A stretch of 64,000 nucleotides of DNA, taken from an uncultured virus (IMG/VR IMGVR_UViG_3300030101_001550). Its lineage: Duplodnaviria > Heunggongvirae > Uroviricota > Caudoviricetes. The notes under the pieces are model-generated. The model saw only the letters and a program-made list of their open reading frames with translations. It was not told where the DNA came from and did no database searches. The position numbers and the translations under genes are program-made. Shown piece after piece: positions 25 to 64,000 of the stretch (position 1 is the first letter of the stretch; every line of letters begins with the position of its first letter). The stretch lies in the IMG/VR virus record IMGVR_UViG_3300030101_001550. The stretch is one strand, 5' to 3'.

Positions 25-59
25 TTGAGCACTAAGCCTTGAGCGTTGAGCATTGAGCA
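25..59. repeat. 7-bp periodic heptamer array (TTGAGCN), probable genome-end/packaging-associated repeat
   Basis: TTGAGCA 25, CTAAGCC 32, TTGAGCG 39, TTGAGCA 46, TTGAGCA 53; a related array lies at 63414..63441. Confidence 0.7.
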
Positions 60-206
60 TCAACATTCCACAAAACTTACGAAGTAAGTTTTATAATCTC
101 CTGTTATAAAAATTTTTTTATAGTAAAAAATAACGAAAATGTAGAGGTTATTTACTTGTTTTTATCTGTTATTATTAGTTTATATTAGAAGAACGAAAGG
201 AGAACT

Positions 207-266
207 ATGCTAGAATTTTTACTAATATTTATTTTAGGAATACTAGTTTTAGTATTTACTAATTAA
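207..266 (+). CDS. 19-aa hydrophobic micropeptide MLEFLLIFILGILVLVFTN
   Basis: Strong SD (GAAAGGAGA) just upstream; single transmembrane-like segment; below the ORF track size cutoff. Confidence 0.55.
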   Translation: MLEFLLIFILGILVLVFTN

Positions 267-309
267 TCGAAATAGTATAATAATTAACTTAGAAAGGAGA
301 GAAAAAATT

Positions 310-684
310 ATGAAAGAAGCTACTAATAAAAAATTTCCTAATAGTTTTAAGAAATTAGCTAGTAGAAGAATTCTTTTTCGTTTAGTAAATACTAAACGAG
401 GAAAATCTTTCGATATATTCGAAGCGAATAAATTCGCTACGACTATCGAAGAACTTTTTTCTAATTCGAATTATCGTTCTATAGATTACTCTTACGATAC
501 TAGAATTAATAATAAATTATCTAGTATTAAGTTAATCGTAGAAAACGTAAACGATAAAGACGATATAGAAGAAATTAAAACTATTCTAAAAGAGAATAGA
601 GAATTCTTAAACGCTAATAAAACTATTAAGAATAGAAAAGCGATAGAAGAAAATATTAAATTCTTCGAAAGTAAAATTTCTTAA
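310..684 (+). CDS. Hypothetical early protein, paralog of 63647..>64000; CA/TG-free coding sequence
   Basis: SD AGAAAGGAG; NKKFPNSF...FRLVN matches NKKFPTSF...FLLVN in the paralog; followed by a terminator. Confidence 0.85.
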   Translation: MKEATNKKFPNSFKKLASRRILFRLVNTKRGKSFDIFEANKFATTIEELFSNSNYRSIDYSYDTRINNKLSSIKLIVENVNDKDDIEEIKTILKENREFLNANKTIKNRKAIEENIKFFESKIS

Positions 685-695
685 TTAATAAATTT

Positions 696-726
696 AATCT
701 CTCTCTTTTTTAAGAGAGAGATTTTT
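696..726 (+). terminator. Rho-independent terminator
   Basis: AATCTCTCTCTT-tttt-AAGAGAGAGATT 12-bp stem followed by a T run, directly after the 310..684 stop. Confidence 0.8.
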
Positions 727-890
727 TATTTTTATTTCTAATTTATAAATCTCTAAAAAAATATTCGTATTAAGTTTGCTGTGTAATAAATCGTATAAAG
801 TTTGTACGTTTTGTAGGCGATTTGTTTATATACGAATAAGCTTTACCACTAATGGCTGTTATATGTATAAATAATATATATACTAATTTG

Positions 891-1130
891 ATGATAAAGG
901 TCTGGTTACTACTGTTTCTTACCTCTGCCCCTAATTTACCTTCTGTTAAATACAATGCTTGGCTTTACAAGACAGAAATAGAATGTAGAGAGGCGCAAGT
1001 AGAATATTTAAATCTGTACGAATCTCAGTCAGATTTCTATAAATCAACTTTAATAACTGACGCTTTTTGTATAGAGTTTGAATCTTTTCCAATCGAGAAG
1101 TTTCAACCACAACTATTTGAAAAAACATGA
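891..1130 (+). CDS. Hypothetical protein with hydrophobic N-terminus
   Basis: MIKVWLLLFLTS start at ATG 891 preferred over 852; overlaps the terL start (ATGA). Confidence 0.6.
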   Translation: MIKVWLLLFLTSAPNLPSVKYNAWLYKTEIECREAQVEYLNLYESQSDFYKSTLITDAFCIEFESFPIEKFQPQLFEKT

Positions 1131-2638
1131 GAACTGAATTAATAGAAAAAGCAAAAACAATTCTTTTGGATCCTAAAGCTCCAAAAAATATCAAAGCACA
1201 AGTTTATGAGATATTAGAGAAACAGCGATCCAAAGAAGCAAACGCCGGAGCAAAAGAAACTATTATAGGATATGCAAAACATATGTATCCTGGATACAAC
1301 GATCCAGCACATATAAAACTTATTGCACAAAACCTAGAAAGTTTGGAGAAAGGCGATATAGACAGACTAGCTATATTTATGCCACCTCGACATGGCAAGT
1401 CCATGTTATGCTCCGAGTTTTTTCCAGCTTGGTACTTAGGTCGTAATCCTAAAAAATTTGTTATACAATCAACATACGCTCAAGAATTGGCTGATGATTT
1501 TGGACGCAAGGTACGTAACCAAATACGCTCAGAAGAATTTATGTCAGTCTTTGAAGGTGTAGGCTTACGAGAAGATTCAAGCTCTGCTAAACGTTTTCAC
1601 ACAGTACATGGTGGAACGTATAGTGCAGTCGGTGCTGGCGGTGCTATTACAGGTCGTGGTGCACACTTACTAATTATTGATGATCCTATAAAAGGGCGTG
1701 AAGAAGCAGAGTCAGGGCTTCAACGTAGAAATTTAGTCGAGTGGTATAAGTCAGTCGCTTACACACGATTACAGCCAGGTGGTAAAGTTATTTTAATTCA
1801 AACTCGATGGCACGAAGAAGATTTAGCGGGATGGATATTAGAGAACTCAGGAGAGAAGTGGAAAGTTTTAGACTTACCAGCGATAAACGCAAGTGGTGAT
1901 GCGTTGTGGCCAGAAGCATATCCCGTAGAAAAATTACAAAAAATCAAAGCGACAGTCGGAGATAGAGTATGGGAGTCATTATACCAGCAACGTCCAACAG
2001 CAGAACAGGGCGCTATACTCAAGAGAGATTGGTGGCGAAAATTGGATCATCAACCTAAATACGATTTTATATTACAAAGTTATGACACAGCATTTAGTAC
2101 GAAAGAGTCTGCAGACTTTTCAGCAAGAACAACGTGGGGAGTGTTTTCTAGAGTGAACGAAGATACTGGCGAAATAGAAGCATGTATAGGTTTAATCGAA
2201 GCATGGAAAGATAGAGTAGAATATCCAGATTTAAGACGTATTGCACAAGAAGCATATCGAGAGTATAAGCCTAATGTAATTCTAATCGAGAAACGTGCAT
2301 CAGGGCAATCGTTACTTCAAGACATGAGAAGGGCGGGTTTACCAGTACATGAATATAGGCCTGATAGAGATAAAGTTTCAAGAGCACATGCAGTCGCTCC
2401 ACTTTTAGAAAGTGGACTTATCTATACTCCAGAAGAATTATGGGTAGACGATATAATTGCAGAAGCGGCGGCGTTTCCATATGGTAAACATGATGACTTT
2501 GTAGATACTTGTACTCAAGCATGGCAGTTAATTCGAGAACAATATTTAGTAGCACATCCATTAGATCCAGATGATTTTGACGAATGGGACGATAAACCAG
2601 TTTTAAGTAAATTAGTCGAAAAGAGATATTATAGTTAG
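1127..2638 (+). CDS. terL: Terminase large subunit
   Basis: Walker A MPPRHGKS, Walker B LLIIDDP, QTRWH, nuclease motifs SYDTA and KHDDFVD. Confidence 0.95.
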   Translation: MRTELIEKAKTILLDPKAPKNIKAQVYEILEKQRSKEANAGAKETIIGYAKHMYPGYNDPAHIKLIAQNLESLEKGDIDRLAIFMPPRHGKSMLCSEFFPAWYLGRNPKKFVIQSTYAQELADDFGRKVRNQIRSEEFMSVFEGVGLREDSSSAKRFHTVHGGTYSAVGAGGAITGRGAHLLIIDDPIKGREEAESGLQRRNLVEWYKSVAYTRLQPGGKVILIQTRWHEEDLAGWILENSGEKWKVLDLPAINASGDALWPEAYPVEKLQKIKATVGDRVWESLYQQRPTAEQGAILKRDWWRKLDHQPKYDFILQSYDTAFSTKESADFSARTTWGVFSRVNEDTGEIEACIGLIEAWKDRVEYPDLRRIAQEAYREYKPNVILIEKRASGQSLLQDMRRAGLPVHEYRPDRDKVSRAHAVAPLLESGLIYTPEELWVDDIIAEAAAFPYGKHDDFVDTCTQAWQLIREQYLVAHPLDPDDFDEWDDKPVLSKLVEKRYYS

Positions 2639-12151: not shown

Positions 12152-12512
12152 AACAGCAAGAAAAGCTTCATCTGGTAAATATGCTAGAGGAAAGTATGCT
12201 AGAGCTATTTCTGATAGAAGTGGATTAGAATATCCATATAAAGAAATGGTAAGAGAATGGACTGGAGCTTTAGTTCATACTTCTGAATTTGAACCTAAAA
12301 ATCCTTTACTCGATCCAGTTTCTTATACAGATCCAGAAGCTTTAAAAAATGCTAGACCTCAAGCATCTCTTGCAGCAACTGGTGGAGTACCAGATCAAAT
12401 TACTAACACTTTTCCTGGCACATTCGGTGAAACAGGAATATCATACCCTAAAATAAATACAGGAATAAAAGCAAATGCCAGTATTGGAACAGTCACAGTC
12501 GTCATCAGCTGA
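12132..12512 (+). CDS. Hypothetical protein
   Basis: AISDRSG...EFEPKNP...DPEALKNARP motifs. Confidence 0.65.
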   Translation: MVTPSSRTARKASSGKYARGKYARAISDRSGLEYPYKEMVREWTGALVHTSEFEPKNPLLDPVSYTDPEALKNARPQASLAATGGVPDQITNTFPGTFGETGISYPKINTGIKANASIGTVTVVIS

Positions 12513-13311
12513 AGAATATAATTTTAAAGGCAAAACCATTATGGTTGGTACGCCTTGTTATGGTGGAATGATGCATGAATCTTACATGCACTGTTTTTTA
12601 AAAACATTAAAAGAAGCAGAAAAACAAGGATATAAATTACACTTGAATACTATGGGAAATGAAAGTTTGATAACTAGAGCTAGAAATACAATAGTATCTC
12701 AATTTATGGATCAAGATAATCTTACACATTTACTTTTTATCGATGCTGATATTGCGTGGAAACCAGAAACTATTACTCGTATGTTAAAAGTAGATGAAGA
12801 TGTCGTTGGTGCAATATACCCTAAAAAGACTATCGAATGGAAAAATTTACCTAAATATATGAAAATGTATCCAGATGATTTGGATAATATGGAACAAAAA
12901 CTTATGGGGTATAATATAAATTTTAAAGACCCTAGAAATATACCTATGTATCAAGGTGGTTTTGTAGAGGTATTAGACGCTGCTACAGGTTTTATGCTAA
13001 TAAAAAAAGATGTATTTGTTCGTATGAAAGAAGCATATCCAGAGTTAAAATATAAATCAGATCAAATAATGAATGGTAAATCTTATAGTAGCGATAATTG
13101 TTACGCTTTTTTTGATACTCTAATAGACCCTGACAGTAAAAGATATTTAAGTGAAGACTACGGTTTTTGTCGTTTATGGCAAAAAATAGGCGGAAAAATA
13201 TACGCAGATGTAGTAAGTTCTTTAACACATTATGGAACGTATCATTTTAGAGGAAATATCTCGCATAAATTTGCAGAAAAGAGTAATATAGAGGATAGAG
13301 ATGGCAACTAA
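12475..13311 (+). CDS. GT-A fold glycosyltransferase-like protein in the structural module
   Basis: VGTPCYGG, ESLITRARN, DxD motif FIDADI, TGFMLI, SEDYGFC. Confidence 0.75.
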   Translation: MPVLEQSQSSSAEEYNFKGKTIMVGTPCYGGMMHESYMHCFLKTLKEAEKQGYKLHLNTMGNESLITRARNTIVSQFMDQDNLTHLLFIDADIAWKPETITRMLKVDEDVVGAIYPKKTIEWKNLPKYMKMYPDDLDNMEQKLMGYNINFKDPRNIPMYQGGFVEVLDAATGFMLIKKDVFVRMKEAYPELKYKSDQIMNGKSYSSDNCYAFFDTLIDPDSKRYLSEDYGFCRLWQKIGGKIYADVVSSLTHYGTYHFRGNISHKFAEKSNIEDRDGN

Positions 13312-14395: not shown

Positions 14396-14848
14396 ATGGC
14401 GTTTGTCCTTAATGATAGGGTAAAAGAAACTACTACTACGACAGGAACTGGAGCGATTACTTTTGCAGGAGCAGTTACTAATTTTGAAACTTTTGCTGCA
14501 GGCATAGGAAATAGTAATAAAACTTTTTATGCAATAGTTCATAAATCAGCTTCAGAATTTGAAGTAGGTATAGGTACGTTAAATGGAAGTAGCAGTACGA
14601 TAACTCGCACTACTGTTATTTCTTCAAGTAACAGCGATAACGCTGTTGACTTTAGCGCAGGAGAAAAAGAAATATTTTGTACGTATCCAGCATCTCGTGC
14701 TCCCTCAGCAGGTATGACGGCTACTACATATGTTACTACTCATAACTCTACTATTAGCGATGATCAAACTATGGATTCCGGTGTTTTAGCTGGCCCTATT
14801 ACAGTTACAGGGTCATTAACAGTTACAGGTAATTTATTTATATTATGA
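14396..14848 (+). CDS. Tail-associated structural protein
   Basis: DRVKETTTTTGTG, FEVGIGT, FSAGEKEIFCTYPA motifs. Confidence 0.7.
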   Translation: MAFVLNDRVKETTTTTGTGAITFAGAVTNFETFAAGIGNSNKTFYAIVHKSASEFEVGIGTLNGSSSTITRTTVISSSNSDNAVDFSAGEKEIFCTYPASRAPSAGMTATTYVTTHNSTISDDQTMDSGVLAGPITVTGSLTVTGNLFIL

Positions 14849-15651
14849 GTCAGATTGAAGTAGATAAAGTTATACCACAGTCAGGTACAGCTCTTCAAAT
14901 AGGAGAAAATGGAGATACTATTACTTTGCCTGCAGGTACAACTTTAACTCTTCCAAACAGTGCGATAACAAATGATGAATTAGCTGGATCAATAGCAAAT
15001 TCAAAATTACAAAATTCTGCAATAACTATAAATGGAAGTTCAGTATCTTTAGGCGGTAGTGTAACTATACAAGGTGAAACTAGACCAACTTTTAGTTCAG
15101 TATCACCAACTGTAATTACAAACGCACAAGATACACTTACAATTGCTGGAACTAATTTTGTGTCTGTACCTTTAGTGACAGCTGTAAACTCTTCTTCTGG
15201 TGCAACCATTGTTGCAGATGAAGTATCTTTTAGTTCAGCAACTAGCATTACAGCTAAATTTACAATAGCTGTTGATGGCACTTATAAATTATATATTGAA
15301 AATCCAGACGGTAACGCAGTTCAATCTGGTGCAGTTTTAACAGTTTCTGACGCTCCTTCGTGGACAACAGCAGCAGGATCACTCGGCACATTTGCAGCTT
15401 CTTCTGCAATAAGTGTTACAGTAGCAGCAACAGACGCAACAGCCTTTGCTGTACAATCTGGTTCACTTCCTGGTGGACTTAGTTTAAATACTAGCACAGG
15501 TGTAATTAGTGGTAATGAATCTGGTGCAACTCAGACGACAACTTACAATTTCACTATTAGGGCAACTGATGCTCAATCTCAAACTGCAGATAGAGCTTTC
15601 AGTATAACTATAACAACAAGCATACAAAATGCAGCGAGGTTTGGTGTATAA
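14845..15651 (+). CDS. Tail fibre module 1A: Ig-like/IPT adaptor
   Basis: Paralog of 18167 and 21766 (ITINGS, GET[RK]PT, W-T-AGSLG, YNFT..TDA). Confidence 0.75.
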   Translation: MSQIEVDKVIPQSGTALQIGENGDTITLPAGTTLTLPNSAITNDELAGSIANSKLQNSAITINGSSVSLGGSVTIQGETRPTFSSVSPTVITNAQDTLTIAGTNFVSVPLVTAVNSSSGATIVADEVSFSSATSITAKFTIAVDGTYKLYIENPDGNAVQSGAVLTVSDAPSWTTAAGSLGTFAASSAISVTVAATDATAFAVQSGSLPGGLSLNTSTGVISGNESGATQTTTYNFTIRATDAQSQTADRAFSITITTSIQNAARFGV

Positions 15652-17051
15652 TGGGTAATGGAGTTTATTTAAGTAGATCTCAATCATCTAATGAAGATTC
15701 AGCAGCTAGAAAAAAATTCACTATTAGTGGTTGGTATAAACTAGGCAATAACGGTGATGCTGGAGGTTGGAAAGGTTTCTGGTCTGCTGCTGTAGATGGT
15801 AACAATTATTCATCTTTAAAACAAAACGCAGATGGACAAATAATTTTTGAACAAAAATCAAGTGGCACAGGTGTATCTTGGACATCTACAGGTAAGTACA
15901 GAGACTTTGCATCTTGGTACCACATAGTGGTAGCTTATGATTCTACTCAAGCAAGTAATACTGACAGAGTAAAAGTATATATTAATGGCACTCAACCAGC
16001 AGGAACTTATGGTAGTTTTACACAAGACCAAGAAGGTTTCTGGGGAAACAGTTCTGCAACCGCTGGAATAGGTAGATACAATAATAATACTGGTAATTCT
16101 TATATGTATACTGGTTACATGACACATGTAGCTTGTACGGTAGGATATGCTTTAGCACCAACTATTTTTGGTGAAACAGATTCTACAACTGGAGAGTGGA
16201 AAATTAGAGGAGTTCCTACAGGAATTACTTATTCAGCAAATGGTTTTCTCTTAAAGTTTGAAAACAGTGGCACCATGGGCACTGATTCTTCTGGTAATAA
16301 TAATACTTTTACTGTGAATGGTGTAGGTGGATCAGATGGAACTTTGGTTCAAGTAACAGATGTTCCAGATAATAATTTTATTACGATGAATGAATTAACA
16401 AGAAGTAGCTATGTTGATTTAAGAGAAGGTGGTTTAAATAATCTTGGTAATACAAATTCTAACAATGGTAATATAGATGCAAATCAGGCTTTTTATGCTG
16501 GTAAATGGTATGCTGAATACAAATTTGTAACTGCAGCTTCAACTAGTACCACCTCTTATCCAGCAGTAGGAGTTTATCCAGTTTTTATAAGTAGACAACC
16601 AAAAGATGGGGGCAATTCTTCTCAAGCTGGTTATTTTTCTAATGGAGTTCAGTTTGAACCAGATGGAGAAAAAATGATAAACAATTCTAGATCATCATAT
16701 GGAAATTCATGGAGCACAAATGATATCATACAAATAGCTTTAGATATGGATAATTATGCTGTTTATTTTGGAATTAATAATACATGGCAAGCCTCTGGTG
16801 TTCCAACAAGCGGAGCATCAAAAACAAATGCTGCAAAAACATGGACAGCGGATGAGGGACCTTATGTTTTTCACGACTCTCCTTTTAATGGGTCTGTTAC
16901 TTCTTGGAACTTTGGTAATCCTCAACATGCTATTACCAGTAATAGTGGTAATGGATACGCTGACGCAAATGGTCATGGTAAATTTCAATATGCACCACCA
17001 ACAGGTTATTACGCTTGTTGTACAAAAAACATAAACCAATACGGAGGATAG
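15651..17051 (+). CDS. Tail fibre module 1B: ConA/LamG-like plus SPRY-like lectin protein
   Basis: WYHIVVAYD, GKWYAE, ADANGHGKFQY, CTKN motifs; paralog of 18976 and 22608. Confidence 0.75.
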   Translation: MGNGVYLSRSQSSNEDSAARKKFTISGWYKLGNNGDAGGWKGFWSAAVDGNNYSSLKQNADGQIIFEQKSSGTGVSWTSTGKYRDFASWYHIVVAYDSTQASNTDRVKVYINGTQPAGTYGSFTQDQEGFWGNSSATAGIGRYNNNTGNSYMYTGYMTHVACTVGYALAPTIFGETDSTTGEWKIRGVPTGITYSANGFLLKFENSGTMGTDSSGNNNTFTVNGVGGSDGTLVQVTDVPDNNFITMNELTRSSYVDLREGGLNNLGNTNSNNGNIDANQAFYAGKWYAEYKFVTAASTSTTSYPAVGVYPVFISRQPKDGGNSSQAGYFSNGVQFEPDGEKMINNSRSSYGNSWSTNDIIQIALDMDNYAVYFGINNTWQASGVPTSGASKTNAAKTWTADEGPYVFHDSPFNGSVTSWNFGNPQHAITSNSGNGYADANGHGKFQYAPPTGYYACCTKNINQYGG

Positions 17052-17052
17052 C

Positions 17053-18165
17053 ATGGCATACGCAACAATTAATAACCCTTCAGCAAATTTTACACTTAAA
17101 CAATATACTGGTACTGGCAATGACAATACAGCAATAACTAATGATGCTAGTGCAGGTAATTTTAAACCTGATTTATTGTGGATTAAAGAAAAAGTTTCTT
17201 CTTCAGCATCATCACACAGACTATTTGATTCTAATAGAGGTGCTTCTAAAAGAATAGAATCAGATACCACGTCTGCGCAAGCTACTGATACTTCAAACCA
17301 AAAAAGTTTTGATACTAACGGTTTTACACTTGGCAACAGTAGTTCTGTAAATGCAAACGGTGATACATATATTGCAGCACAATGGAAAGCCAACGGTGGC
17401 ACTACATCTTCAAATTCAACTGGAGATATTACATCCACAGTTCAAGCAAACACTGCCGCTGGTTTTAGTATTGTTACATGGACAGGTAACGGTGGTGGAA
17501 CAAATGTTAATATTGGTCATGGTTTAGGAGGTGTGCCAGAAATAGTGGCTGTAAAAAATTTAACTGACACTACTAACTGGAGAGTTGGTATTAGTAATAA
17601 AATTAAAGGTCAAGGTGGAACTGGTAGAGATATGGCAGCATCAAATGGTAAATACATGGAATGGGATGATTCTGCTGCTCAAAAAAATCCTGGAGGCACA
17701 ACAGTTTGGGGATCTCCACAAAATCCTACGTCAACAGTTTTTACAGTAGGTTCAAATAATTCAGTTAATGGTAATGGCGATTCAATGCTTGCATATTGTT
17801 GGAGAAGTATAAGAGGATATAGTCAATGCGGAACTTTTATTGGGACTGCTGATTCTGGAGCAAATGCTCCTTTCGTTTATACTGGATTTAGACCAGCATA
17901 TGTCATGATAAAACCAATTGACAATGCTTCTTCTTGGTCGTGGCATGACGTGGTAAGAAGTCCACACAATGAATCACAAGAATATCTTTGGTATAATAGT
18001 TCAAACACACAAGGAACCAGAGCTGCTTTTGATATAGTATCAAATGGTTTTAAACTTAGAACAACTGATAACGATTACAACTACAACGGTGGTTACATGC
18101 TTTATTATGCTGTAGCAGAAATGCCATTAGTTGCAACAAACGATGTATTTGCATTAGCGAGGTAG
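17053..18165 (+). CDS. Tail fibre module 1C
   Basis: PDLLWIK, AGFSIV, GHGL, YTGFRP, NGFKLR motifs; paralog of 20309 and 23944. Confidence 0.75.
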   Translation: MAYATINNPSANFTLKQYTGTGNDNTAITNDASAGNFKPDLLWIKEKVSSSASSHRLFDSNRGASKRIESDTTSAQATDTSNQKSFDTNGFTLGNSSSVNANGDTYIAAQWKANGGTTSSNSTGDITSTVQANTAAGFSIVTWTGNGGGTNVNIGHGLGGVPEIVAVKNLTDTTNWRVGISNKIKGQGGTGRDMAASNGKYMEWDDSAAQKNPGGTTVWGSPQNPTSTVFTVGSNNSVNGNGDSMLAYCWRSIRGYSQCGTFIGTADSGANAPFVYTGFRPAYVMIKPIDNASSWSWHDVVRSPHNESQEYLWYNSSNTQGTRAAFDIVSNGFKLRTTDNDYNYNGGYMLYYAVAEMPLVATNDVFALAR

Positions 18166-18166
18166 G

Positions 18167-18976
18167 ATGACATCAGAGATTAAAGTAAATGTAATTAAAA
18201 AAAATTCAGGATCAACAATTACGATTGGCGAAGTTGGTGATACAGTAACTATTACACCAGGTATTAGTGCAGCTTTACTTACATCAGGTAGTTTACCAAT
18301 AGCTCGTATCGATGATGATAGTATTACAAATGCTAAACTCGATAATAATTCAATTACTATAAATGGCTCTGCAGTTCAATTAGGCGGATCAGTAACAGTC
18401 GGTGAAACAAAACCAACAATATCTTCTATCAGTCCTACAGTAATAACTAATGACGCAACTAACGTAACTATTAATGGCTCTAACTACGTTTCTGTGCCAA
18501 TAGTAGAAGCAATTAATTCTACTGGTGTAATTACTGCTGCAAATTCAATTACTTTTAATAGTGCAGCTCAACTAGTTGCCAACTTTACATTAGGAACTGA
18601 TGGTACATATTTTATAAGAATAGAGAATAATGACGGTAACGCTGTTCGTAGTGGATCAGCATTACTTACTGTATCTGACGTACCTGCATGGACCACAGGT
18701 GCTGGCAGTTTAGGAACTGTTGATGCTGGAGGGTCGATGAATTTTACAGTGGCAGCAACTGACGCAACTGCTTATGCTGTTACATCTGGAGCATTACCTG
18801 GTGGCGGAAGTATAAACAATTCAGGAGTAATATCAGGAACAGAAAATGGTTCCACTGCAACGACTACATATAATTTCACGATAACTGCAACTGATGCGCA
18901 AGGTCAAACTGCAAATAGAGCCTTTTCAATTACAGTAAATCACGGTATAAGTAACTCAGTAAGGATGGATCCATAA
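18167..18976 (+). CDS. Tail fibre module 2A: Ig-like/IPT adaptor
   Basis: Paralog of 1A and 3A. Confidence 0.75.
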   Translation: MTSEIKVNVIKKNSGSTITIGEVGDTVTITPGISAALLTSGSLPIARIDDDSITNAKLDNNSITINGSAVQLGGSVTVGETKPTISSISPTVITNDATNVTINGSNYVSVPIVEAINSTGVITAANSITFNSAAQLVANFTLGTDGTYFIRIENNDGNAVRSGSALLTVSDVPAWTTGAGSLGTVDAGGSMNFTVAATDATAYAVTSGALPGGGSINNSGVISGTENGSTATTTYNFTITATDAQGQTANRAFSITVNHGISNSVRMDP

Positions 18977-20307: not shown

Positions 20308-20308
20308 A

Positions 20309-21766: not shown

Positions 21767-22608
21767 TGTCAGAGATTAAAGTAAATGCTATAAAAAAACG
21801 TAACGGTAGTACGATCACTATTGGTGAATCGGGTGACACTGTTACGATAACAGGTGGCGCAGCTTTATCTGGCTCTGGCGCATCTCTTACAGCTTTAAAT
21901 GGCAGTAATGTTGCGTCAGGAACTGTAGCGAATGCTCGTCTAGTAGGTAGCGGTGCAATAACAATAAATGGATCGGCAGTATCTCTTGGTGGCTCTGTTA
22001 CTGTAGGAGAAACGAAACCAACAGTTACTGGTGTTACGCCAAGCACGATAGATAATACAGCACAAAATGTTACGATAGCTGGTACTAACTTTGTATCTGT
22101 ACCGCAAGTAGAAGCTATTTCTACGACAGGTGCAATTACAGTAGCGAATAGTGTTAGTTTTACTAGTGCTACATCTATTATAGCTAATTTTACTTTAACG
22201 ACAGATGGCACGTATTTTATTCGTGTAGAGAATAATGACGGTAATGCTGCAAGGTCAAGTTCTGCAATATTAACAGTATCAGACGCTCCAACATGGACTA
22301 CAGGAGCTGGCTCTCTTGGAACTATCGCAGGTGGATTTTCAGGTACAGTTGCAACAGTAGCAGCTACTGGAGACAGCACATTAGCTTTTTCAGAAACAAC
22401 AAGTGTTTTAACAAACGCAAGTCAAGCAAATTGCTCGCTAAATTCAGCTACAGGTGTTATAACTACTACTGATTTTGGTGGATCGTCAACGTCTGCTACG
22501 ACATATAATTTTACACTTCGTGTTACTGATGCAGAAGGTCAGACAGCAGATCGAGCTTTTTCGTTGACATCAAGCTTTCAAATAGAAAACTCAGGAGGGT
22601 TTAACTAA
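21766..22608 (+). CDS. Tail fibre module 3A: Ig-like/IPT adaptor
   Basis: Paralog of 1A and 2A. Confidence 0.75.
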   Translation: MSEIKVNAIKKRNGSTITIGESGDTVTITGGAALSGSGASLTALNGSNVASGTVANARLVGSGAITINGSAVSLGGSVTVGETKPTVTGVTPSTIDNTAQNVTIAGTNFVSVPQVEAISTTGAITVANSVSFTSATSIIANFTLTTDGTYFIRVENNDGNAARSSSAILTVSDAPTWTTGAGSLGTIAGGFSGTVATVAATGDSTLAFSETTSVLTNASQANCSLNSATGVITTTDFGGSSTSATTYNFTLRVTDAEGQTADRAFSLTSSFQIENSGGFN

Positions 22609-23942: not shown

Positions 23943-23943
23943 C

Positions 23944-43654: not shown

Positions 43655-43739
43655 TTTCTACTTTCTTGTATAAATTATTTTATTTACTATATATTAAAAT
43701 AATATAAAAATATATTTTTTTATAGAAAGGTAAGAAATT

Positions 43740-47133: not shown

Positions 47134-47919
47134 ATGAAATATTTATTTTTTGATGTAGAAACAACTGGATTATGGAGGCGAGATTTAGAAGCTACAGATA
47201 AAAATCAACCTCGTATAGTTCAAATAGCAGCGCAATTAACAGATGAAAAAGAAAAAGTGCATGGACAATTAGCGTGTATAGTTCAGCCAGATGGTTGGAA
47301 AATACCTAAAGAGGCGTCAGATATTCATAAAATAACTGAAGAAATAGCTTTGCAACATGGACTTCCTTTGATAAATGTGTTAAGTATGTTTAATTCTATG
47401 GCAGCACAAGCTGATGTATTAGTTGCTCATAACACTTCTTTTGACTTACAGATGGTGTTAAGAGAATTTAATCACATAGGTAAAAATTTTAGAGCGCCTA
47501 AAACACAACATTGTACGATGATGACTGCGAAAGATATTCTAAAATTAGAAAGTGATTTTGACGATTACAAATTTCCTAAATTAGAAGAAACATATAAACA
47601 TTTTTTAGGTGGCGGTTATATGAATTGGCACGATGCACTAACTGATATTATAGTTTGTCGTATAATTTATTTCCACATGAAAGCGAAAGGAATAGAAATG
47701 GTAAAACCTAGAGATATGCCTAAAGCATTAATAAAAAACCTTGACGAAAAAGTGTTTAAAGAAGTAAAAAATCTTTTAGAATTATCAGATACGAAGGACT
47801 TAACAGATTGGGAAAGTAAATTTGTAAATGATCAGAAAGAAAGATTAGAGAAATATGGAGAAAAAATACTTATGAGTGATAAACAATTAAATGTATTGAG
47901 AAAGATAGCAGACAAATGA
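47134..47919 (+). CDS. DEDDh 3'-5' exonuclease (DnaQ-like)
   Basis: FFDVETTG, VAHNTSFD, HDALTD motifs; ATG start at 47134. Confidence 0.85.
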   Translation: MKYLFFDVETTGLWRRDLEATDKNQPRIVQIAAQLTDEKEKVHGQLACIVQPDGWKIPKEASDIHKITEEIALQHGLPLINVLSMFNSMAAQADVLVAHNTSFDLQMVLREFNHIGKNFRAPKTQHCTMMTAKDILKLESDFDDYKFPKLEETYKHFLGGGYMNWHDALTDIIVCRIIYFHMKAKGIEMVKPRDMPKALIKNLDEKVFKEVKNLLELSDTKDLTDWESKFVNDQKERLEKYGEKILMSDKQLNVLRKIADK

Positions 47920-48878
47920 AGATAGTAGTAACAGGTGGCGCAGGATTTTTAGGCTCACATTTAGTACAACATCTTGTACAAAAAGATCATGAGGTATATT
48001 CTATTGATAATTTTTTAACAGGTCAAGAAGAACACACTATATTTTGTGATAATTTTACTAAAGCAGATATTTCTGATACTTACGATATGAAACAAGTATT
48101 TGAACAAATAAGTGCTAGTGGTCCAATAGATGTAATTTATAATTTAGCTTGTCCTGCAAGTCCTGATCATTATCAAAAACATTCTCTTAAAACATTAGAT
48201 ACGTGTTACATGGGAGTTAAAAATATTTTAGAAGCAGCGAAGCAATCTAACGCTATGGTTATACATACTTCAACTTCAGAAGTATATGGTAACCCTGATC
48301 ATACTCCACAAGAAGAAACTTATTATGGAAATGTAAATTCTTTTGGACCACGTGCTTGTTATGACGAAGGCAAGAGAGTTGCTGAAGCACTTATATTTGA
48401 ATATACTAGACTGTTTAAAACAGATGTTAAGATAGCTAGAATATTTAATACATACGGTCCTCGTATGTCTATACAAGATGGTAGAGTAATATCTAATTTT
48501 ATATGTAACGCATTACAGAATAAAGACCTTTTACTTTATGGAGATGGAAATCAATCTCGTTCTTTTTGTTATGTAAGCGATACGATACATGGTTTATTGC
48601 AAATGATGAATACGACTAGATTAAAATTACCAATAAACATAGGTAATCCATCAGAGTATACAGTAAAAGAAATAGCAGAATTAGTAATTAGTATGACTGG
48701 TTCCACATCAGGAATCATGTCAGTATCACCAAAGAAAGATGATCCTTTACAAAGATGTCCAGATATAAATAGAGCAAAAGAACTTTTACATTGGACTCCA
48801 AGAGTAGGACTTGTAGATGGATTAAAGAAAACAGTAGAATATTTTGAAGAATGTTTACAGCAAGAGATACAAACTTAA
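47916..48878 (+). CDS. UDP-glucuronate decarboxylase (UDP-xylose synthase)-like extended SDR
   Basis: TGGAGFLGSH, LACPASP, STSEVYG, GPRACYDEGKRVAE, RIFNTYGPRM, DGRVISNF, DDPLQRCPDI are UXS-family signatures. Confidence 0.85.
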   Translation: MKIVVTGGAGFLGSHLVQHLVQKDHEVYSIDNFLTGQEEHTIFCDNFTKADISDTYDMKQVFEQISASGPIDVIYNLACPASPDHYQKHSLKTLDTCYMGVKNILEAAKQSNAMVIHTSTSEVYGNPDHTPQEETYYGNVNSFGPRACYDEGKRVAEALIFEYTRLFKTDVKIARIFNTYGPRMSIQDGRVISNFICNALQNKDLLLYGDGNQSRSFCYVSDTIHGLLQMMNTTRLKLPINIGNPSEYTVKEIAELVISMTGSTSGIMSVSPKKDDPLQRCPDINRAKELLHWTPRVGLVDGLKKTVEYFEECLQQEIQT

Positions 48879-50366: not shown

Positions 50367-51029
50367 ATGATAAATGAATACATGAAATATTTTTTACAAA
50401 AAATAGATAATGACATCTATGACGAACCTAAATCTCAATTACATTACAGTGTTATATTACCTATGACAGGAAAAGTTTTAGCTGAGTACAATTTACAAAC
50501 AACCGATAAGATATTAGACATGGGTTGCGGTGATGGATATTTTTTAAAATTATTAAAAGAAAAAGGATTTACTAATTTAGTTGGAGTAACAAAAGCAGAT
50601 AAAGATATAGAACGTTGCAAAGAAAAAGGTTTAGATGACATAAGAAAAATAGACATGACTTTTTCTGGTATAAAAGAAGAATTTGATTTTTTATGGTGTA
50701 GACATGCATTAGAGCATAGCCCTTTTCCTTATTTAACTTTACATGAATTTAATAGATTAGTTAAGATGGACGGCGGAGCATATGTAGAAGTTCCCGCTGC
50801 TGTTAATGTAGCTAATCATGAAGATAACAGGAATCATTATTCTTTACTTACAAAAACTAATTGGATAGCATTGATGTTGCGTTCTGGTTTTGATGTAAGC
50901 AGTGTAGAAGAAATAAAGTTAGATATAAAAAATCCAAACTACAAAGATGGAGAAGCTTATCCAGAAACATGGTGGGGATTTTATCTAAGAAAAACAGTAG
51001 AGCTTAATTTTATGAAAGGAGTATTATGA
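50367..51029 (+). CDS. Class I SAM-dependent methyltransferase
   Basis: ILDMGCGDG, FDFLWCRHALEH, GGAYVEVP. Confidence 0.85.
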   Translation: MINEYMKYFLQKIDNDIYDEPKSQLHYSVILPMTGKVLAEYNLQTTDKILDMGCGDGYFLKLLKEKGFTNLVGVTKADKDIERCKEKGLDDIRKIDMTFSGIKEEFDFLWCRHALEHSPFPYLTLHEFNRLVKMDGGAYVEVPAAVNVANHEDNRNHYSLLTKTNWIALMLRSGFDVSSVEEIKLDIKNPNYKDGEAYPETWWGFYLRKTVELNFMKGVL

Positions 51030-52084
51030 AAGCAATAGGAAGTTACATATTTGCTGGTGGTTTTACTATTGGAGTTAAAAAACATTTTAATGTACTAGCG
51101 CACTTTGAAGGCGATGGATATGGCGCAGATACATTTAGTTTAAATTATCCAGAAATACCAGTTTTTGTTGGTCCAGAAAATTGGCCAACAGGAGATTATA
51201 AAGACATAGATTTTGTATATGGAAATCCACCTTGTGCGCCATGGAGCACACTAGGGTCAGGAAGTAAAGGAGCAGATGGTTGGAAATCAGATCCACGAGT
51301 AAGTTGTTGGAGCGATGTATTTTCTTTAATATATACAGTAAAACCAAAAGCTATCGCTATTGAGTCAGTTCCACGTGCTTATTCTCCAACAGGTGGATTA
51401 CCGATGATAAAAGATTTTACAGAGAAAGCAAATAAAGAAGGTTATGCTGTTACACATCTTATGGTAGATGGACAGTACACTGGTCTTAATCATACTAGGC
51501 GAAGATTCTTTTTCTTAGCTCATAAAGGTAAGTTCAGTCCTCCAGCACCAAACTGGAATCCATCACCAAATGTAGGCGATGTATTAGATGAGTTTAAAGC
51601 AGAACATGGTGGAGACCCTGGACATTATGGAAAACTAAGTGACAATGAAATGAAATTAGTAAAGATTGCGAAACCAGGAGAATCGTTAAGAAACATATGG
51701 GAAAGTTTAAACCCACCAGAAACTTGGAAAAGGTCAACTAAAGGACGAAAAGGAGTTATTGGTAGACCACAATTTATGAAGTGGAGATTGACTAGAGAGC
51801 AAACTATGGGAGTAATAGCAGGAGGTTTTGCAATACATCCAGAAGAAGATAGACTTTTAGGTATAAGAGAATTGTGTGCTTTCTCTGGGTATCCAGTAGA
51901 TTACAAATTTGCTGGAGCAAAATCAGGTTGGCCTAGCTTAATAGCAAGAGGCGTAATGCCACCAGTAGGCGAGTGGCTTGCGAGAAATGTAAAAGCTATG
52001 ATAGAAACAGACGCTAAATACCACGTTGATTCTCAATTTATAGATTACAGAAAACCAGCAACAGGAGATTTATTTAATGCTTAA
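51026..52084 (+). CDS. DNA cytosine-C5 methyltransferase-fold protein with atypical SAM motifs
   Basis: GNPPCAPWS (IV), ESV (VI), HTRRR (VIII), HPEEDRLLGIRE...GYP (IX); motif I YIFAGG and motif X ARGV are divergent. Confidence 0.8.
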   Translation: MKAIGSYIFAGGFTIGVKKHFNVLAHFEGDGYGADTFSLNYPEIPVFVGPENWPTGDYKDIDFVYGNPPCAPWSTLGSGSKGADGWKSDPRVSCWSDVFSLIYTVKPKAIAIESVPRAYSPTGGLPMIKDFTEKANKEGYAVTHLMVDGQYTGLNHTRRRFFFLAHKGKFSPPAPNWNPSPNVGDVLDEFKAEHGGDPGHYGKLSDNEMKLVKIAKPGESLRNIWESLNPPETWKRSTKGRKGVIGRPQFMKWRLTREQTMGVIAGGFAIHPEEDRLLGIRELCAFSGYPVDYKFAGAKSGWPSLIARGVMPPVGEWLARNVKAMIETDAKYHVDSQFIDYRKPATGDLFNA

Positions 52085-52457
52085 AGATATAGAAGAATTT
52101 CATAAGAAGTTTGATTTACCTAAACGTCATGGTATCAAGAATAATAAAGATATTGTAGACTTTAGGATTAAATTTCTAGAAGAAGAATTAAGAGAATTAA
52201 AAGAAGGCGTTGAGAAAGACGATGACGCAAAGATTTTAGATTCTTTAGTAGACATAGTTTATGTAGCACTCGGTACCGCTTATATATTTGACTATCCTTT
52301 TTGGATAGCATGGAAAGAAGTACAAGATGCTAACATGAAAAAAGAAAGAAAAGAAAGTGCTCGTTCTAAATTTGATGTAACAAAACCAGAAGGTTGGAAA
52401 CATCCAGATATTGAGCAAGTGCTTAAAACATTTAAACATTGGAGTTCGTGGTCATGA
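52077..52457 (+). CDS. MazG-like/PRA-PH nucleotide pyrophosphohydrolase (putative dCTPase/dUTPase)
   Basis: EFHKKF, LEEELRE, DSLVDIVYV, EVQDANMKK motifs. Confidence 0.8.
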   Translation: MLKDIEEFHKKFDLPKRHGIKNNKDIVDFRIKFLEEELRELKEGVEKDDDAKILDSLVDIVYVALGTAYIFDYPFWIAWKEVQDANMKKERKESARSKFDVTKPEGWKHPDIEQVLKTFKHWSSWS

Positions 52458-53488
52458 AAGTTTTAGTAACAGGGTTTACCTCTAAAGGTATTGGAACTAA
52501 TAAAAATGTACTAGAAATAGCAACAGCAGCAAACTGTTTGCCTAGAGCATTAAGAGAATGTGGAATAGAAGTTGATCATAGAGTAGTAGTGCCTGGCGAT
52601 GATATATCAGAATACGATAAAGTTGTTGTATTTGCATTTGCCCCTAATTCTTTACCGTCATCTTATTTGTATGGAGGTCTTTACACTTTATTAAAAAGAC
52701 CTGACGCATATATTGCATTAGATGATTGGCAAACTAGAGATATACCTAATGGTTGTAGAACTTTTGCACGTGAAGATCATTGGCGATTATGGAAAAGAGT
52801 AAGCAAAGCAGGTAATTCTGTAGGTAAAAAATTCTTTGACGAAGCACAGCCTTATAAAAAAGAAATGGAAGATTTAATTACAGAACTAGGTTTTAAGAAA
52901 TGGAACTTTAAAGTATTAGCACCAATGTACGATGGTGGGGATAGTAGTCAGTTAGGAATAGATTGCGAAAAAATAATACCCTGGGATCCTACACCTGTTA
53001 CTGATAGTTATAAAGAAAAAAGAAACAGTTTATTCTCTGCATTAGAACATACTGGTCCTAAAGAAAGAGAATGGATTATGGCTTCTCTTATACAAAAACA
53101 AAGTTGGCTTAATCGTCAAAACTTTACTTGGAAAGTAACTGGATATGGTAACGTAAATCTAGGCCAGCAACGAATCACAGAGCCAGAATTGTATAAAGAA
53201 TACTTACGAGTAAGAGGAATACTTATACCTCCACACTATCATACGATAAAAGGTAGTGGCTGGTGGAGAGTTCGTTATGGAATGATAGCAGACGCAGGTT
53301 GCATAGCTTATGGCGATTTAGAAGAAACAAAACTATTTGGTTATTCTTACAAGATTAGAAATAACGATATTGAGTACATGTCAGATAAAGGTTTAGATGA
53401 CTTGGCTCAAGCACAAAAAGAAGATTTTATTTCTACAGTGTGGAATAAAAATAGATTAAATACGTTTATCGGAGATAATTTTTTATGA
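52454..53488 (+). CDS. GT-B glycosyltransferase, T4 beta-glucosyltransferase-like
   Basis: By-eye similarity to T4 BGT: G.EVD..., EYDKVVV (BGT DYDRLIV), YIALDDW (YYLFTDI), RVRYGMIADAGCIAYGDLEE (TLRVWETMASDAVMLIDEEF); ATG 52454 after GGAG. Confidence 0.6.
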   Translation: MKVLVTGFTSKGIGTNKNVLEIATAANCLPRALRECGIEVDHRVVVPGDDISEYDKVVVFAFAPNSLPSSYLYGGLYTLLKRPDAYIALDDWQTRDIPNGCRTFAREDHWRLWKRVSKAGNSVGKKFFDEAQPYKKEMEDLITELGFKKWNFKVLAPMYDGGDSSQLGIDCEKIIPWDPTPVTDSYKEKRNSLFSALEHTGPKEREWIMASLIQKQSWLNRQNFTWKVTGYGNVNLGQQRITEPELYKEYLRVRGILIPPHYHTIKGSGWWRVRYGMIADAGCIAYGDLEETKLFGYSYKIRNNDIEYMSDKGLDDLAQAQKEDFISTVWNKNRLNTFIGDNFL

Positions 53489-54123
53489 GAGATGTAAGCG
53501 ATATAATCAAAGGTATAATTATAATAGAAGGTGCAGACTGTACTGGTAAAACTACTCTTGCTAAATATCTATGCGATAAATTTAAAGCAAGATATATGCA
53601 TTTAAGAATACATAAGAAGATGGAGATATGGCATACTGCAACTGTTCGTAGAGCAATAAGACTTGCTAAAAAAGAATTAGTTGTAATAGATAGACACTGG
53701 CCATCAGAAGAAACTTATGCTTACGAAAGAGCAGACGGTCCAGAATATAATCCTAAAGAATTATACAAAAAACTAAAAGAAGCAAATACTTTATATGTGT
53801 GGTGTGCACCTGAAGATAGCAGTAAAGTTATTAACATGCATAAGAATAAAAAACTAGAACGTCACGAAGAATACAGTGACATATCCAAAGTTGTAGAGAG
53901 ATATAGACGTTCATGGTACGGTAATAATAACGAACATAAAAACTTCTTATCATCTCTCGGTATGTTAAAAGAAAGGTCTAACTTTATTCGCTACGATGTA
54001 TTTAAAGAAGGTAGCATGATAGACGTAAAAGTATATACGATAATAAATAGATTACGATACTTGAAAGGAGAATGCCCATGGAACGAATCGATGTCAAACT
54101 TTCCGCTGACAATGAGTGGTTAG
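53485..54123 (+). CDS. dNMP kinase (thymidylate kinase-like P-loop)
   Basis: IIIIEGADCTGKTT, VVIDRHWPSE. Confidence 0.85.
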   Translation: MRDVSDIIKGIIIIEGADCTGKTTLAKYLCDKFKARYMHLRIHKKMEIWHTATVRRAIRLAKKELVVIDRHWPSEETYAYERADGPEYNPKELYKKLKEANTLYVWCAPEDSSKVINMHKNKKLERHEEYSDISKVVERYRRSWYGNNNEHKNFLSSLGMLKERSNFIRYDVFKEGSMIDVKVYTIINRLRYLKGECPWNESMSNFPLTMSG

Positions 54124-54905
54124 ATGCTATTAAAGATATAAATCATGGTAAGTGGACAAGACCACGTGGTTTAGAAACACTTGAAAAAATAAATCATACT
54201 ACAATGTGCGATATGAGATATCCCGTTATAACTAACAAAAAGAGAGAACTTGGCTACAGGTTTATGGTAGCAGAAGCACACTGGATTCTTACTGGAAATA
54301 ATAAATTATCTACAATAAAACCTTTCTCTAAAAACATAGCTAGATTTAGCGATGATGGTTATTTCTTTAGAGGAGCATATGGTCCTAAGATAGTTGATCA
54401 ACTTCAGTACGTGTGTAGAATATTAAATGACGATATAAATACACGTCAAGCTGTTATAAATATATGGAGAGAAAGTCCTTACGATACTGACGATGTACCC
54501 TGCACTATCTCTTTTCAATTTCTTATTAGAGAGAACAAACTAAATGTTATCGCTAATATGCGTTCAAACGATTTATGGCTAGGTTGGCCTTACGATAATT
54601 TTAACTTCTCAATGCTAGGTGCGTATGTCGCATTACTTATGTGGGATATTTATAGAATGGATTTAGACTTAGGAGTTACTGTAATCAATGCTGGCTCTCG
54701 TCATTTATATCAATCTGATCATGATAAAGCTTTAGAATGTGTAAAAGCAGGAGAGAATGATTTCTATGATTATAGACCTTTAAACATTAAAGATTTTAGA
54801 AATAGCATGAGTACGAGTGCTAATAATCTTCTTGATCATCTAGCTTACTGTACTGAGGGTTGGAAAGCCGATAGTCAGTTCTTACACGAGTTCTTTGAGA
54901 TATGA
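54072..54905 (+). CDS. Thymidylate synthase-family dCMP-modifying enzyme (dCMP hydroxymethylase-like)
   Basis: GAYGP, TRQA, DVPCT..QFLIR, MRSNDLWLGWPYD (Asp at the E. coli TS Asn177 position), SRHLY. Confidence 0.8.
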   Translation: MPMERIDVKLSADNEWLDAIKDINHGKWTRPRGLETLEKINHTTMCDMRYPVITNKKRELGYRFMVAEAHWILTGNNKLSTIKPFSKNIARFSDDGYFFRGAYGPKIVDQLQYVCRILNDDINTRQAVINIWRESPYDTDDVPCTISFQFLIRENKLNVIANMRSNDLWLGWPYDNFNFSMLGAYVALLMWDIYRMDLDLGVTVINAGSRHLYQSDHDKALECVKAGENDFYDYRPLNIKDFRNSMSTSANNLLDHLAYCTEGWKADSQFLHEFFEI

Positions 54906-57978: not shown

Positions 57979-58001
57979 ATTATGATATAACAAAACGACC
58001 G

Positions 58002-58268: not shown

Positions 58269-58295
58269 ACAATTTTTTTGTGGTAAAGATTATCT

Positions 58296-61190: not shown

Positions 61191-61520
61191 ATGGCTACAA
61201 CGCAGTCAACTACAAAAACTAATGGGTCTAAAAAGCCCGTTGTAATTAAAACTCCAAGCGATATGACTGGAGTAAAGAAATACGACCACGATGCTAGAAT
61301 CCAAGTTCTAGTGCCAAAAAACCCTAAACGAGTAGGGTCAGGTGGTTGGAAACGATTTGGTTATTACAAAAATGGTATTACTATCAAAGAGTTTTTGGCG
61401 AAAGGCGGGAAGACTATCGACTTGGATTGGGATAGAGAACGAGGGTTTATTGCTACTGAAGATAGAGATAAATCTGGTTCCAAGAGTAAATCGCCAAAAG
61501 CGACATTTACTTTAAAATAA
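61191..61520 (+). CDS. Small basic early protein (NPKRxGS...RF..Y..G.T..E motif)
   Basis: SD AGAAAGGAG; distantly similar to 310 and 63647. Confidence 0.75.
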   Translation: MATTQSTTKTNGSKKPVVIKTPSDMTGVKKYDHDARIQVLVPKNPKRVGSGGWKRFGYYKNGITIKEFLAKGGKTIDLDWDRERGFIATEDRDKSGSKSKSPKATFTLK

Positions 61521-62958: not shown

Positions 62959-63417
62959 TTGGAGGTTAATTATATGGATAACATTATTGAATTTAATCAA
63001 GTTGAAAATAAGATTTTATCAGACAAAGAAAAGAAGTTCGTCAATAACATAATTTCTGGATTAGGTAAGAAACAAGCGGCGTTAGAGGCAGGTTATGCTG
63101 AATCGTCAGCTCACGTACAAGCTACCCGACTACTAAAAAAGGATAAAATTCTGAGGGCCGTGACCCGTGCTCGTCAGATTCAGACTCAAAGAACAGTACA
63201 CACAGTCGAAGAAGAGGTCAAAAAGCTAGACGGGCTGTATGATGCTGCGTGCGATAAGAAACAATTCGGGGCAGCGGTCCAGGCTGCGAGGTTGAAGGCA
63301 CAGTTATTGGGGTACCTTGTTGAGAAGAAGGATGTCAAAGTATCACAAGTCGATAACATGGATGAGGGTGAGTTAGTCGCATACCTTGACAAGTTGAAAT
63401 TAGACTACGGCGGTTGA
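62959..63417 (+). CDS. terS: Terminase small subunit (true start probably MDNII)
   Basis: LSDKEKKFV...QAALEAGYAESSAHVQATRLLK HTH typical of TerS; AAVQA...AQLLG. Confidence 0.8.
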   Translation: MEVNYMDNIIEFNQVENKILSDKEKKFVNNIISGLGKKQAALEAGYAESSAHVQATRLLKKDKILRAVTRARQIQTQRTVHTVEEEVKKLDGLYDAACDKKQFGAAVQAARLKAQLLGYLVEKKDVKVSQVDNMDEGELVAYLDKLKLDYGG

Positions 63418-63646: not shown

Positions 63647-64000
63647 ATGACTCAGACTATTAATAAAAAGTTCCCTACCTCATTCAGAGCGATAGAGAAC
63701 AGAGCAATCATGTTTCTTTTAGTTAATCAAAAGAAACCATCAGGCAAAGCCTTTGCCCGATACGAACTTTACAAAACAACAACTTCGTTACTAGACGCAG
63801 TCAATAATGGTTTCACACCGTTAGACATGCAATATGAAACGAAGTCCAACCACCGTTTTAAGAAGTTCCATACTATGTGTTTCATCGAAGGTGTCAACGT
63901 AAACGAAAAAACCAAGACATCTTTAGAAACCGTTATCAATAAGAACAAAGAAGTAGTCAAAGACTTACCGACCGCAGTTCAAAAAAAGATAACAGAGAAC
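63647..64000 (+). CDS. Hypothetical early protein, truncated by the window edge; paralog of 310..684
   Basis: SD AGGAG; MTQTINKKFPTSFRAIENRAIMFLLVNQKKPSGKAFARYELY...; open to the end of the window. Confidence 0.8.
   Translation, partial: MTQTINKKFPTSFRAIENRAIMFLLVNQKKPSGKAFARYELYKTTTSLLDAVNNGFTPLDMQYETKSNHRFKKFHTMCFIEGVNVNEKTKTSLETVINKNKEVVKDLPTAVQKKITEN

Follow-up and report, generated by a model that had tools for sequence, protein, structure and literature searches.

A terS-adjoining phage cassette free of CA, CC, TG and GG, and its possible link to cytosine hypermodification

We analyzed a 64,000-nucleotide stretch of DNA (the window) from an uncultured phage whose record is 64,367 bp long. 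The record has a terminal overlap of 277 bp that is indistinguishable from an assembly overlap. The phage was detected in 20 runs from 8 studies, and 19 of these runs were labelled marine or seawater. On the circular map, the small terminase gene (terS) is followed by a GC-rich spacer, the gene X1, a terminator, heptamer repeats, a hairpin, a promoter region, a peptide ORF and the gene X2. Downstream of X2 lie a terminator, a tandem motif, ORF 852 and the large terminase gene (terL). The features of this locus, together with those of a distant gene cluster discussed below, are listed in Table 1.

Table 1 Features of the phage genome in window coordinates.
Feature	Coordinates	Strand	Basis
Heptamer repeats (TTGAGCA type), left border	39..57	+	repeat search
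Perfect inverted repeat (9 bp, 3-nt loop), left border	72..92	.	z -5.0, -5.1, -2.9
C[A/C]-free island	73..846	.	dinucleotide counts and segment observed/expected in 55 relatives
Putative promoter element, common to the X1 promoter (63580)	172..186	+	motif match
Hydrophobic 19-aa peptide ORF	207..266	+	ORF and relatives
X2, 124 aa	310..684	+	ORF; without family or fold match
Intrinsic terminator, CT/AG-built	696..723	+	stem analysis
Tandem boundary motif (765-778, 791-804), right island edge	765..804	+	motif search
Terminase large subunit	1127..2638	+	profile match
Nucleotide-sugar epimerase/dehydratase	47916..48878	+	profile match
SAM methyltransferase	50367..51029	+	profile match
C5-cytosine methyltransferase homologue	51026..52084	+	alignment to CmoX
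MazG/PRA-PH nucleotide pyrophosphatase, putative dCTPase	52077..52457	+	profile match
Putative DNA glycosyltransferase, 344 aa	52454..53488	+	homology
dNMP kinase	53485..54123	+	profile match
Thymidylate-synthase homologue, putative dCMP hydroxymethylase type	54072..54905	+	active-site residues
X0, distant X2 paralogue, normal dinucleotides	61191..61520	+	profile comparison
Terminase small subunit, 5' of X1 and island on circular map	62974..63417	+	profile match
X1, X2 paralogue (31% identical)	63647..64000 (ends at genome position 64039)	+	alignment

Both borders of the locus are marked by repeats. Heptamers of the TTGAGCA type also follow terS (63428) and X1 (genome position 64077), and at least 11 copies occur in one relative (L024). 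The inverted repeat has a different sequence but the same arrangement in L005 and L024. The putative promoter element has three matches in the genome at two or fewer mismatches, two of them being the island and X1 sites; a sigma-70 promoter scan scored no better than chance. A hydrophobic ORF of 17-26 amino acids was found at the place of the peptide ORF in 36 of the 46 strictly purged loci listed. The terminator stems of relatives use CT, AG and CG. The boundary motif is unique to the island within its own genome and follows 93 of the 97 low-count genes that have 300 nt of downstream sequence. A search of Rfam returned no family (best E 0.83).

Some further features were observed around the locus and in the rest of the window. 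The sequence TGTATAAAT at 864-872, before ORF 852 and terL, also occurs at 43667 in the divergent replication-operon promoter. The genome holds four exact copies of it, and relatives have a similar motif after the island; it is a candidate phage promoter element. The replication-operon promoter itself (43655-43739) is too AT-rich for a depletion test. CG is in excess (z +2 to +5.7) in several small genes and terS (57226-63417) and also in terL, and some tail-fibre genes are CG-poor (z down to -3.8). Alternating pairs of similar tail-fibre-like genes of about 270 and 350-490 amino acids at 14845-24999 suggest repeated receptor-binding modules.

X2 is a small basic protein that belongs to no family in Pfam, PHROGs, NCBIfam or PADLOC, and neither X2 nor X0 had a tblastn match in 50,697 phage records. 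The AlphaFold model of X2 (pLDDT 90) had no Foldseek match at E<=0.001 in PDB or BFVD. Its best comparison with VIA gave a Z of 3.7, an rmsd of 2.7 and 69 aligned positions. Queries of the ESM Atlas returned unnamed viral clusters for X0 and no usable result for X2. The N-terminal half of X2 matches X0 (probability 86%, E 5e-6). In 4 of the 15 long X0 homologues scanned, the X0 domain is fused to other domains (pyrimidine-dimer glycosylase-like, SNF2 helicases, PHD finger), which suggests that it may bind DNA or chromatin. A pyrimidine-dimer glycosylase-like gene also lies near X0 (59983-60510), and both domains are fused in P0155. The paralogue X1 has 11 coding TG+GG against 23 expected and 54 CA+CC against 31 expected.

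We counted dinucleotides across the locus. The span 313-776 contains no CA and no TG, one CC (at 337, in the Pro codon CCT) and one GG (at 400, in the Gly codon GGA). It is AT-rich, with 105 G+C among 464 nucleotides. CG is abundant (19 copies, observed/expected 3.2) and TA is not enriched (0.97). The + strand lacks CA throughout 73-846, a stretch that has only two CC, at 100 and 337. Between 168 and 776, TG and GG are confined to two ATGs, two ribosome-binding sites and two Gly codons; 5' of X2, TG occurs at 102, 140, 157 and 167 in addition to the ATGs at 208 and 311. The run without CA or TG is 466 nt long and is the longest in the window. The second longest (103 nt) lies immediately upstream, separated only by an ATG, and the best unrelated run is 78 nt.

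The purge extends to protein composition and codon choice. X2 lacks Gln, His, Cys, Trp and internal Met, a composition with a probability of about 1e-6 by genome residue frequencies. Before a codon starting with G, the preceding codon ends in A in 17 of 28 cases, in C in 11 and never in T, and the 14 codons that end in C are followed by G (11) or T (3) and by no other base. GAATTC occurs twice and TCGA five times. These counts bear out the original prediction in its particulars, namely that CA and TG are absent from 313-776 and CA from 73-846, that the only CC and GG sit in the single Pro and Gly codons, that five kinds of residue are missing from the 124-aa protein, that codon ends are chosen to avoid T before G, that CG is abundant, that palindromes are tolerated, and that the terminator stem is built of CT/AG repeats.

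Four null models were run for CA+TG in X2, with 20,000 replicates each. The mean was 40.4 (minimum 21) when bases were shuffled, 19.6 (minimum 7) when codon order was shuffled, and 26.2 (minimum 11) when the gene was recoded by genome codon usage. The strictest null, a shuffle among the gene's own synonymous codons that preserves the protein and its codon counts, gave a mean of 14.1 (minimum 4). A count of zero was reached in 0 of 20,000 replicates in each of the four, including the codon-preserving shuffle that had been proposed as a check. Against synonymous recoding, the z-scores were -5.3 for TG and -4.8 for CA, and X2 alone among the 80 genes tested was low in both beyond z -3. The purge is real and lies far outside chance expectation.

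CA, CC, TG and GG form a set that is closed under reverse complement and equals C[A/C] on either strand; we refer to these four as banned steps. To see how far relatives share this trait, we collected 253 family ORFs from searches of viral contigs. After removal of ORFs with N, bodies below 300 nt and those missing the anchor motif, and collapse of duplicates, 156 distinct gene bodies remained. Of these, 45 contain no banned step and 71 contain two or fewer, in line with the expectation that homologs in related phages would show the same avoidance. Protein identity within the strict set reaches down to 35% (median 75%), and its sequences share ancestry and so are non-independent. In six strict pairs that differ at 22-111 sites, the gain of banned steps was 0 or -1 in every pair, against 8-29 expected when the same substitutions were placed randomly. 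Substitutions between strict genes are of every type, yet banned steps are never created. One clade has, in addition, given up Pro and Gly and lost GG from the ribosome-binding site.

The constraint is positional. In L026 and L027 a second, unrelated 89-aa gene lies within the island and has no banned steps, so it is the place that is constrained and not the protein. In the protein tree, whose placement of these copies is possibly composition-biased, the CA-rich upstream copies of one clade nest within the strict clade, which indicates that duplicates outside the island relax. Searches of more distant clades yielded at most one further locus, which carries the same island. We found no gradient of depletion across genes upstream of terS, where 4 of about 690 small genes were strongly low. 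Upstream of terS in L040, L047, L020 and L171, two small genes outside the X family are very poor in coding TG/GG at normal CA levels and are possibly further template-clean modules. In L021 (1536-2682) the whole island module is tandemly duplicated, and the two X2 copies are TG-free and differ in CA counts.

The start codon is also affected. Every NTG start codon contains TG. Among 60 distinct 5' ends in a distant clade, 11 lack an in-frame NTG start, and each of the 11 has an ACG 17-18 nt past GAAAG, where their closest ATG-bearing sisters have ATG 16-17 nt past GAAAG. An in-frame ATA 9 nt upstream of the ACG is the alternative start in these genes. The NTG-less genes evolve under purifying selection (pS 0.50, pN 0.09). 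The change from ATG to ACG is T-to-C and is no product of deamination. The lost NTG starts, the orthologs and the positional purge all support the claim that selection acts against C[A/C].

We compared observed and expected counts in 55 strict loci. Gene bodies contain 5 CA (793 expected), 11 CC (156), 5 TG (738) and 5 GG (241). From stop codon to terminator all four steps are at zero (CA 0 of 96 expected, TG 0 of 131). Depletion is partial 100-300 nt upstream, where TG is tolerated. On the other side, TG reappears at the boundary motif and CA and CC remain at zero for about 40 nt farther. The absence of coding-strand CA/CC reaches beyond the transcript on both sides.

The two strands were then compared in 12 partly relaxed genes, selected after their counts were known. 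In six lineages (L003, L008, L021, L209, L206 and the L105 upstream copy), coding CA/CC was regained at the neutral rate, and gains of TG/GG were 0-1 against 2.7-11.3 expected (p 0.03 to <0.001). Two of the other six genes were also low (p<0.05), and the remaining four gave no significant result. The largest case in the opposite direction was 0 to 3, and a plain sign count across 107 low-count genes gave 23 to 17. In the L105 upstream copy, the run without TG/GG extends exactly from the ATG to the terminator stem, with CA present throughout. Positive selection for coding CA was not supported as a cause of the half-relaxed pattern, with gains neutral in 11 of the 12 genes (L201, p 0.049). On the template strand, C[A/C] relaxes last. 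That the template is kept clean while the coding strand relaxes points to transcription and supports the suggested link to host RNA polymerase. According to the accessible text of a review (PMC8989532), lesions in the non-template strand affect RNA polymerase little, so this order of relaxation fits a block to the polymerase.

A banned set that equals C[A/C] on either strand matches a cluster of cytosine-modifying genes between the helicase and PolA genes. This cluster encodes the C5-methyltransferase homologue, the MazG-like pyrophosphatase, the 344-aa protein, the dNMP kinase and the thymidylate-synthase homologue. The last of these has D143, D169 and D177 (E. coli numbering), and its best PDB match is a CMP hydroxymethylase. 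The residue rule given for hydroxymethylases in the accessible part of PMC13326640 is Asp at ThyA position 177 and an acidic residue at 143, and the protein has the gp42/MilA-type residues (T4 dCMP hydroxymethylase). A 5hodCMP synthase of the RB69 gp48 type was rejected, as it requires D169N; the retained D169 argues for a putative hydroxymethyl rather than hydroxy type. The 344-aa protein has no sequence match in Pfam, NCBIfam or PDB. Its homologues occur within the sugar-modification clusters of T4-like phages, one of them matched at 99.5% probability, and some are annotated as glycosyltransferases.

The best PDB match of the C5-methyltransferase homologue is CmoX (8YF3, E 1e-8). Its R308 aligns with R350 of CmoX, the position of N304 in HhaI, and this arginine is conserved in all 11 relatives aligned. 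Its motif is NPPC, which differs from the SPPC used in the CmoX search. No CmoA or CmoY homologue and no ligase was recognized among the 63 ORFs scanned; the SAM methyltransferase, at 15.9 bits, falls far below the CmoA cutoff of 193 and was rejected as a CmoA. A host CmoA could substitute for a phage one, as stated in the accessible portion of PMC12783734. We found no copy of the C5-methyltransferase homologue in bacterial genomes. In one genome with a strict island (G004, L229:9129-10175) it aligns in two pieces, reflecting a frameshift or a sequencing error.

The cluster is present in all nine island-bearing relatives with a contig spanning that region; eight show five genes, and in G003 the hydroxymethylase gene is cut by the stretch fetched. 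The epimerase/dehydratase gene was not found at the corresponding place in G005, G007 and G011, and the SAM methyltransferase gene is absent from the complete genome G009. Neither enzyme would therefore set the context. The CmoX-like C5-methyltransferase homologue is as good a candidate for the context-setting enzyme as the sugar transferase. Island and cluster co-occur in these relatives. G018 combines an intact cluster with a relaxed gene, the only X gene between its terS and terL (CA 23, TG 11, CC 2, GG 2). In an unrelated siphovirus that encodes homologues of the hydroxymethylase, glycosyltransferase and C5-methyltransferase, 50 of the 56 kb contain no island. The phages without the cluster that served as controls have no X gene either and so provide no clean test, and none of the X-gene homologues found comes from a phage shown to be cluster-less.

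Other sugar-related genes were noted. In a distant clade, genes resembling nucleotide-sugar dehydrogenase, NAD synthetase and epimerase directly follow PolA (L205:17-2037, L210:1615-4295; identified by eye) and may supply other sugars. A second, GT2-like glycosyltransferase gene lies amid the head-tail genes (12475-13311); it also occurs in HTVC023P and HTVC027P and is thus unrelated to the island.

Taken together, C[A/C] is probably the context of the phage's own modification, if avoidance of a polymerase block and escape from host defence are considered jointly as the reason for the purge. Between these two, we tentatively favor the first, in which C[A/C] is the hypermodification context and the cassette, being unmodified, is the part that host RNA polymerase expresses first. 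Judging from the active-site residues, the phage would replace cytosine with 5-hydroxymethylcytosine, and cytosines preceding A or C would be further modified on DNA by the putative glycosyltransferase or the CmoX-like homologue. The modified base would hinder host RNA polymerase, chiefly on the template strand. The cassette of promoter, membrane peptide, X2, terminator and boundary repeats would be expressed from fully modified incoming DNA, ahead of other phage products. We propose that this need to be read first has stripped C[A/C] from both strands, with the template strictest. X2 probably binds DNA and may license the rest of the infection, perhaps by rendering modified DNA open to transcription or by finishing DNA entry together with the peptide. 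The full scheme is possible though more doubtful, namely that hypermodification makes a phage's own virion DNA silent to host RNA polymerase, that the new DNA-binding fold of an unmodifiable boot cassette unlocks the genome, and that the missing dinucleotides predict C[A/C]-specific cytosine hypermodification, possibly by a CmoX-like enzyme on hydroxymethylcytosine DNA.

Several observations count against a polymerase block. The glucosyl-hmC DNA of T4 is transcribed by host polymerase. The relaxed gene of G018, the siphovirus without an island, the lack of depletion in other small genes upstream of terS and the sign count of just 23 to 17 over all low-count genes also weigh against it, as does the ban on coding CA/CC, which in most members continues past the transcribed region. 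Small C5 marks are passed freely. According to the accessible text of PMC8989532, RNA polymerase bypasses 5mC and 5hmC, and E. coli RNA polymerase passes 5-carboxylcytosine without pausing.

The second reading, in which C[A/C] is likewise the phage's own modification context, places the threat in a modification-dependent host defence, such as a Brig1-like glycosylase or a type IV nuclease, with the cassette as a target-free counter-defence. We regard it as rather unlikely. Brig1 cuts out alpha-glucosyl-hmC, an activity that its authors suggest impedes transcription (accessible part of PMC11078745), and T5 and BF23 are restricted only if sites lie in the first-transferred DNA (accessible part of PMC10644984). 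Host defence accounts for a ban on both strands, and relaxed lineages would reflect a change of host; abasic sites would count most on the template strand. However, a double-strand nuclease would not yield one-sided relaxation, and X2 has no match among known defence families. Marine and other clades alike show the purge almost universally, down to 35% identity, whereas a patchy distribution is usual for defence systems.

A third reading is unlikely, in which the island is a DNA-handling element at the genome end (an entry leader, injection stop, packaging site or origin) that has to stay unmodified so that proteins can bind it or transcription can drive entry or priming, with X2 and the peptide acting in cis. 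Its position between terS and terL, the heptamers and hairpin on its left, the conserved tandem motif on its right, the conserved membrane peptide and the absence of coding CA/CC past the transcript on both sides are all consistent with this. However, coding sequence is where the purge is strictest, and in a duplicate that lies outside the island it tracks the transcription unit. Nor are contig ends concentrated at any one site (0.52, 0.34 and 0.39 per kb in three segments, rates confounded by the selection procedure of viral contigs), and contigs from four sequencing runs showed strain variants and no genome ends. This reading overlaps the favored one if entry is transcription-driven.

Still less probable is a host or phage factor, independent of the cluster, that reads unmodified C[A/C] or UG/GG in RNA, such as a nickase, deaminase or mRNA interferase. 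The strictest ban is on coding TG/GG, which could be an RNA signal, and the link to the cluster is a co-occurrence within one clade. However, the ban on CA/CC is the exact reverse complement and reaches untranscribed DNA, a pattern not expected of a cause that acts on RNA. Erasure of the steps by local C-to-T hypermutation at C[A/C] instead of by selection, whether RIP-like or by transcription-coupled deamination, fits the AT-richness of the island but is very unlikely, since there is neither a TA excess nor a C-to-T-dominated spectrum, the ATG-to-ACG change runs from T to C, and transcription-coupled deamination would clear the coding strand first, the opposite of what is seen.

If the favored reading is true, hypermodification carries a cost that is paid through a dedicated, purged first cassette, and this cost is so strong that Gln, His, Cys, Trp, Met, Pro, Gly, the ribosome-binding site's GG and ATG have been lost to it. 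Modification contexts in uncultured phages could then be predicted from sequence, with a sharp prediction for two unassigned enzymes. X2 would be a new transcription-licensing or counter-defence protein, and the family would provide natural, conserved non-NUG starts.

Parts of this system resemble known ones. The cluster is similar to the pathways for hmC and glucosyl-hmC in T-even phages and for arabinosyl-hoC in RB69 and DLP3 (accessible text of PMC13326640) in having a synthase homologue with N177D and an acidic residue at 143, a kinase, a dCTPase-like protein and a putative glycosyltransferase clustered together. By contrast with these pathways, D169 is kept here and a C5-methyltransferase homologue lies within the core cluster; the accessible text of PMC13326640 does not describe a context-free island for these pathways. 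CmoX of the Synechococcus phage S-B43 (accessible text of PMC12783734) is similar in being the best PDB match and in its aligned Cx-SAM-binding arginine. It differs in that the homologue here has NPPC instead of SPPC, adjoins a dCMP hydroxymethylase and comes without a recognized CmoA or CmoY. CmoX acts on GC, and the island does not avoid GC. Nothing on modification context was found in the accessible part of PMC13216743.

The gene order (primase, helicase, PolA, small genes, terS, modules, terL) is that of HTVC023P-type pelagiphages such as HTVC023P and HTVC027P, with identities of 56% for the capsid, 39-44% for PolA and 41-45% for TerL; for HTVC023P and HTVC027P, the PolA and TerL values are 39-40% and 41-42%. 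Unlike here, the cluster, the X gene and the CA/TG island are absent from four such phages in the stretches read (HTVC023P whole, HTVC027P over 1-24 kb; three in part). A literature search, with most subscription journals outside its scope, found no description of a modification-free island.

A parallel in logic is the first-step-transfer DNA of T5 and BF23, a first-expressed, target-free region, as is proposed for the cassette, whose products can then protect or license the remainder, with repeats at the border. The T5 pre-early region avoids host restriction sites of 4-8 bp over about 9.7 kb of unmodified DNA (accessible text of PMC10644984). In our case, a dinucleotide class is fully removed from about 0.6-1 kb, with a strand hierarchy, and the purge reshapes the protein, ribosome-binding site, terminator and start codon. 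Genes purged of a short word are also familiar at the RNA level, where motif-poor mRNAs escape MazF-type interferases and the gene stays expressed when others are silenced. Unlike this one-stranded escape, the banned set described here is closed under reverse complement and reaches into untranscribed DNA.
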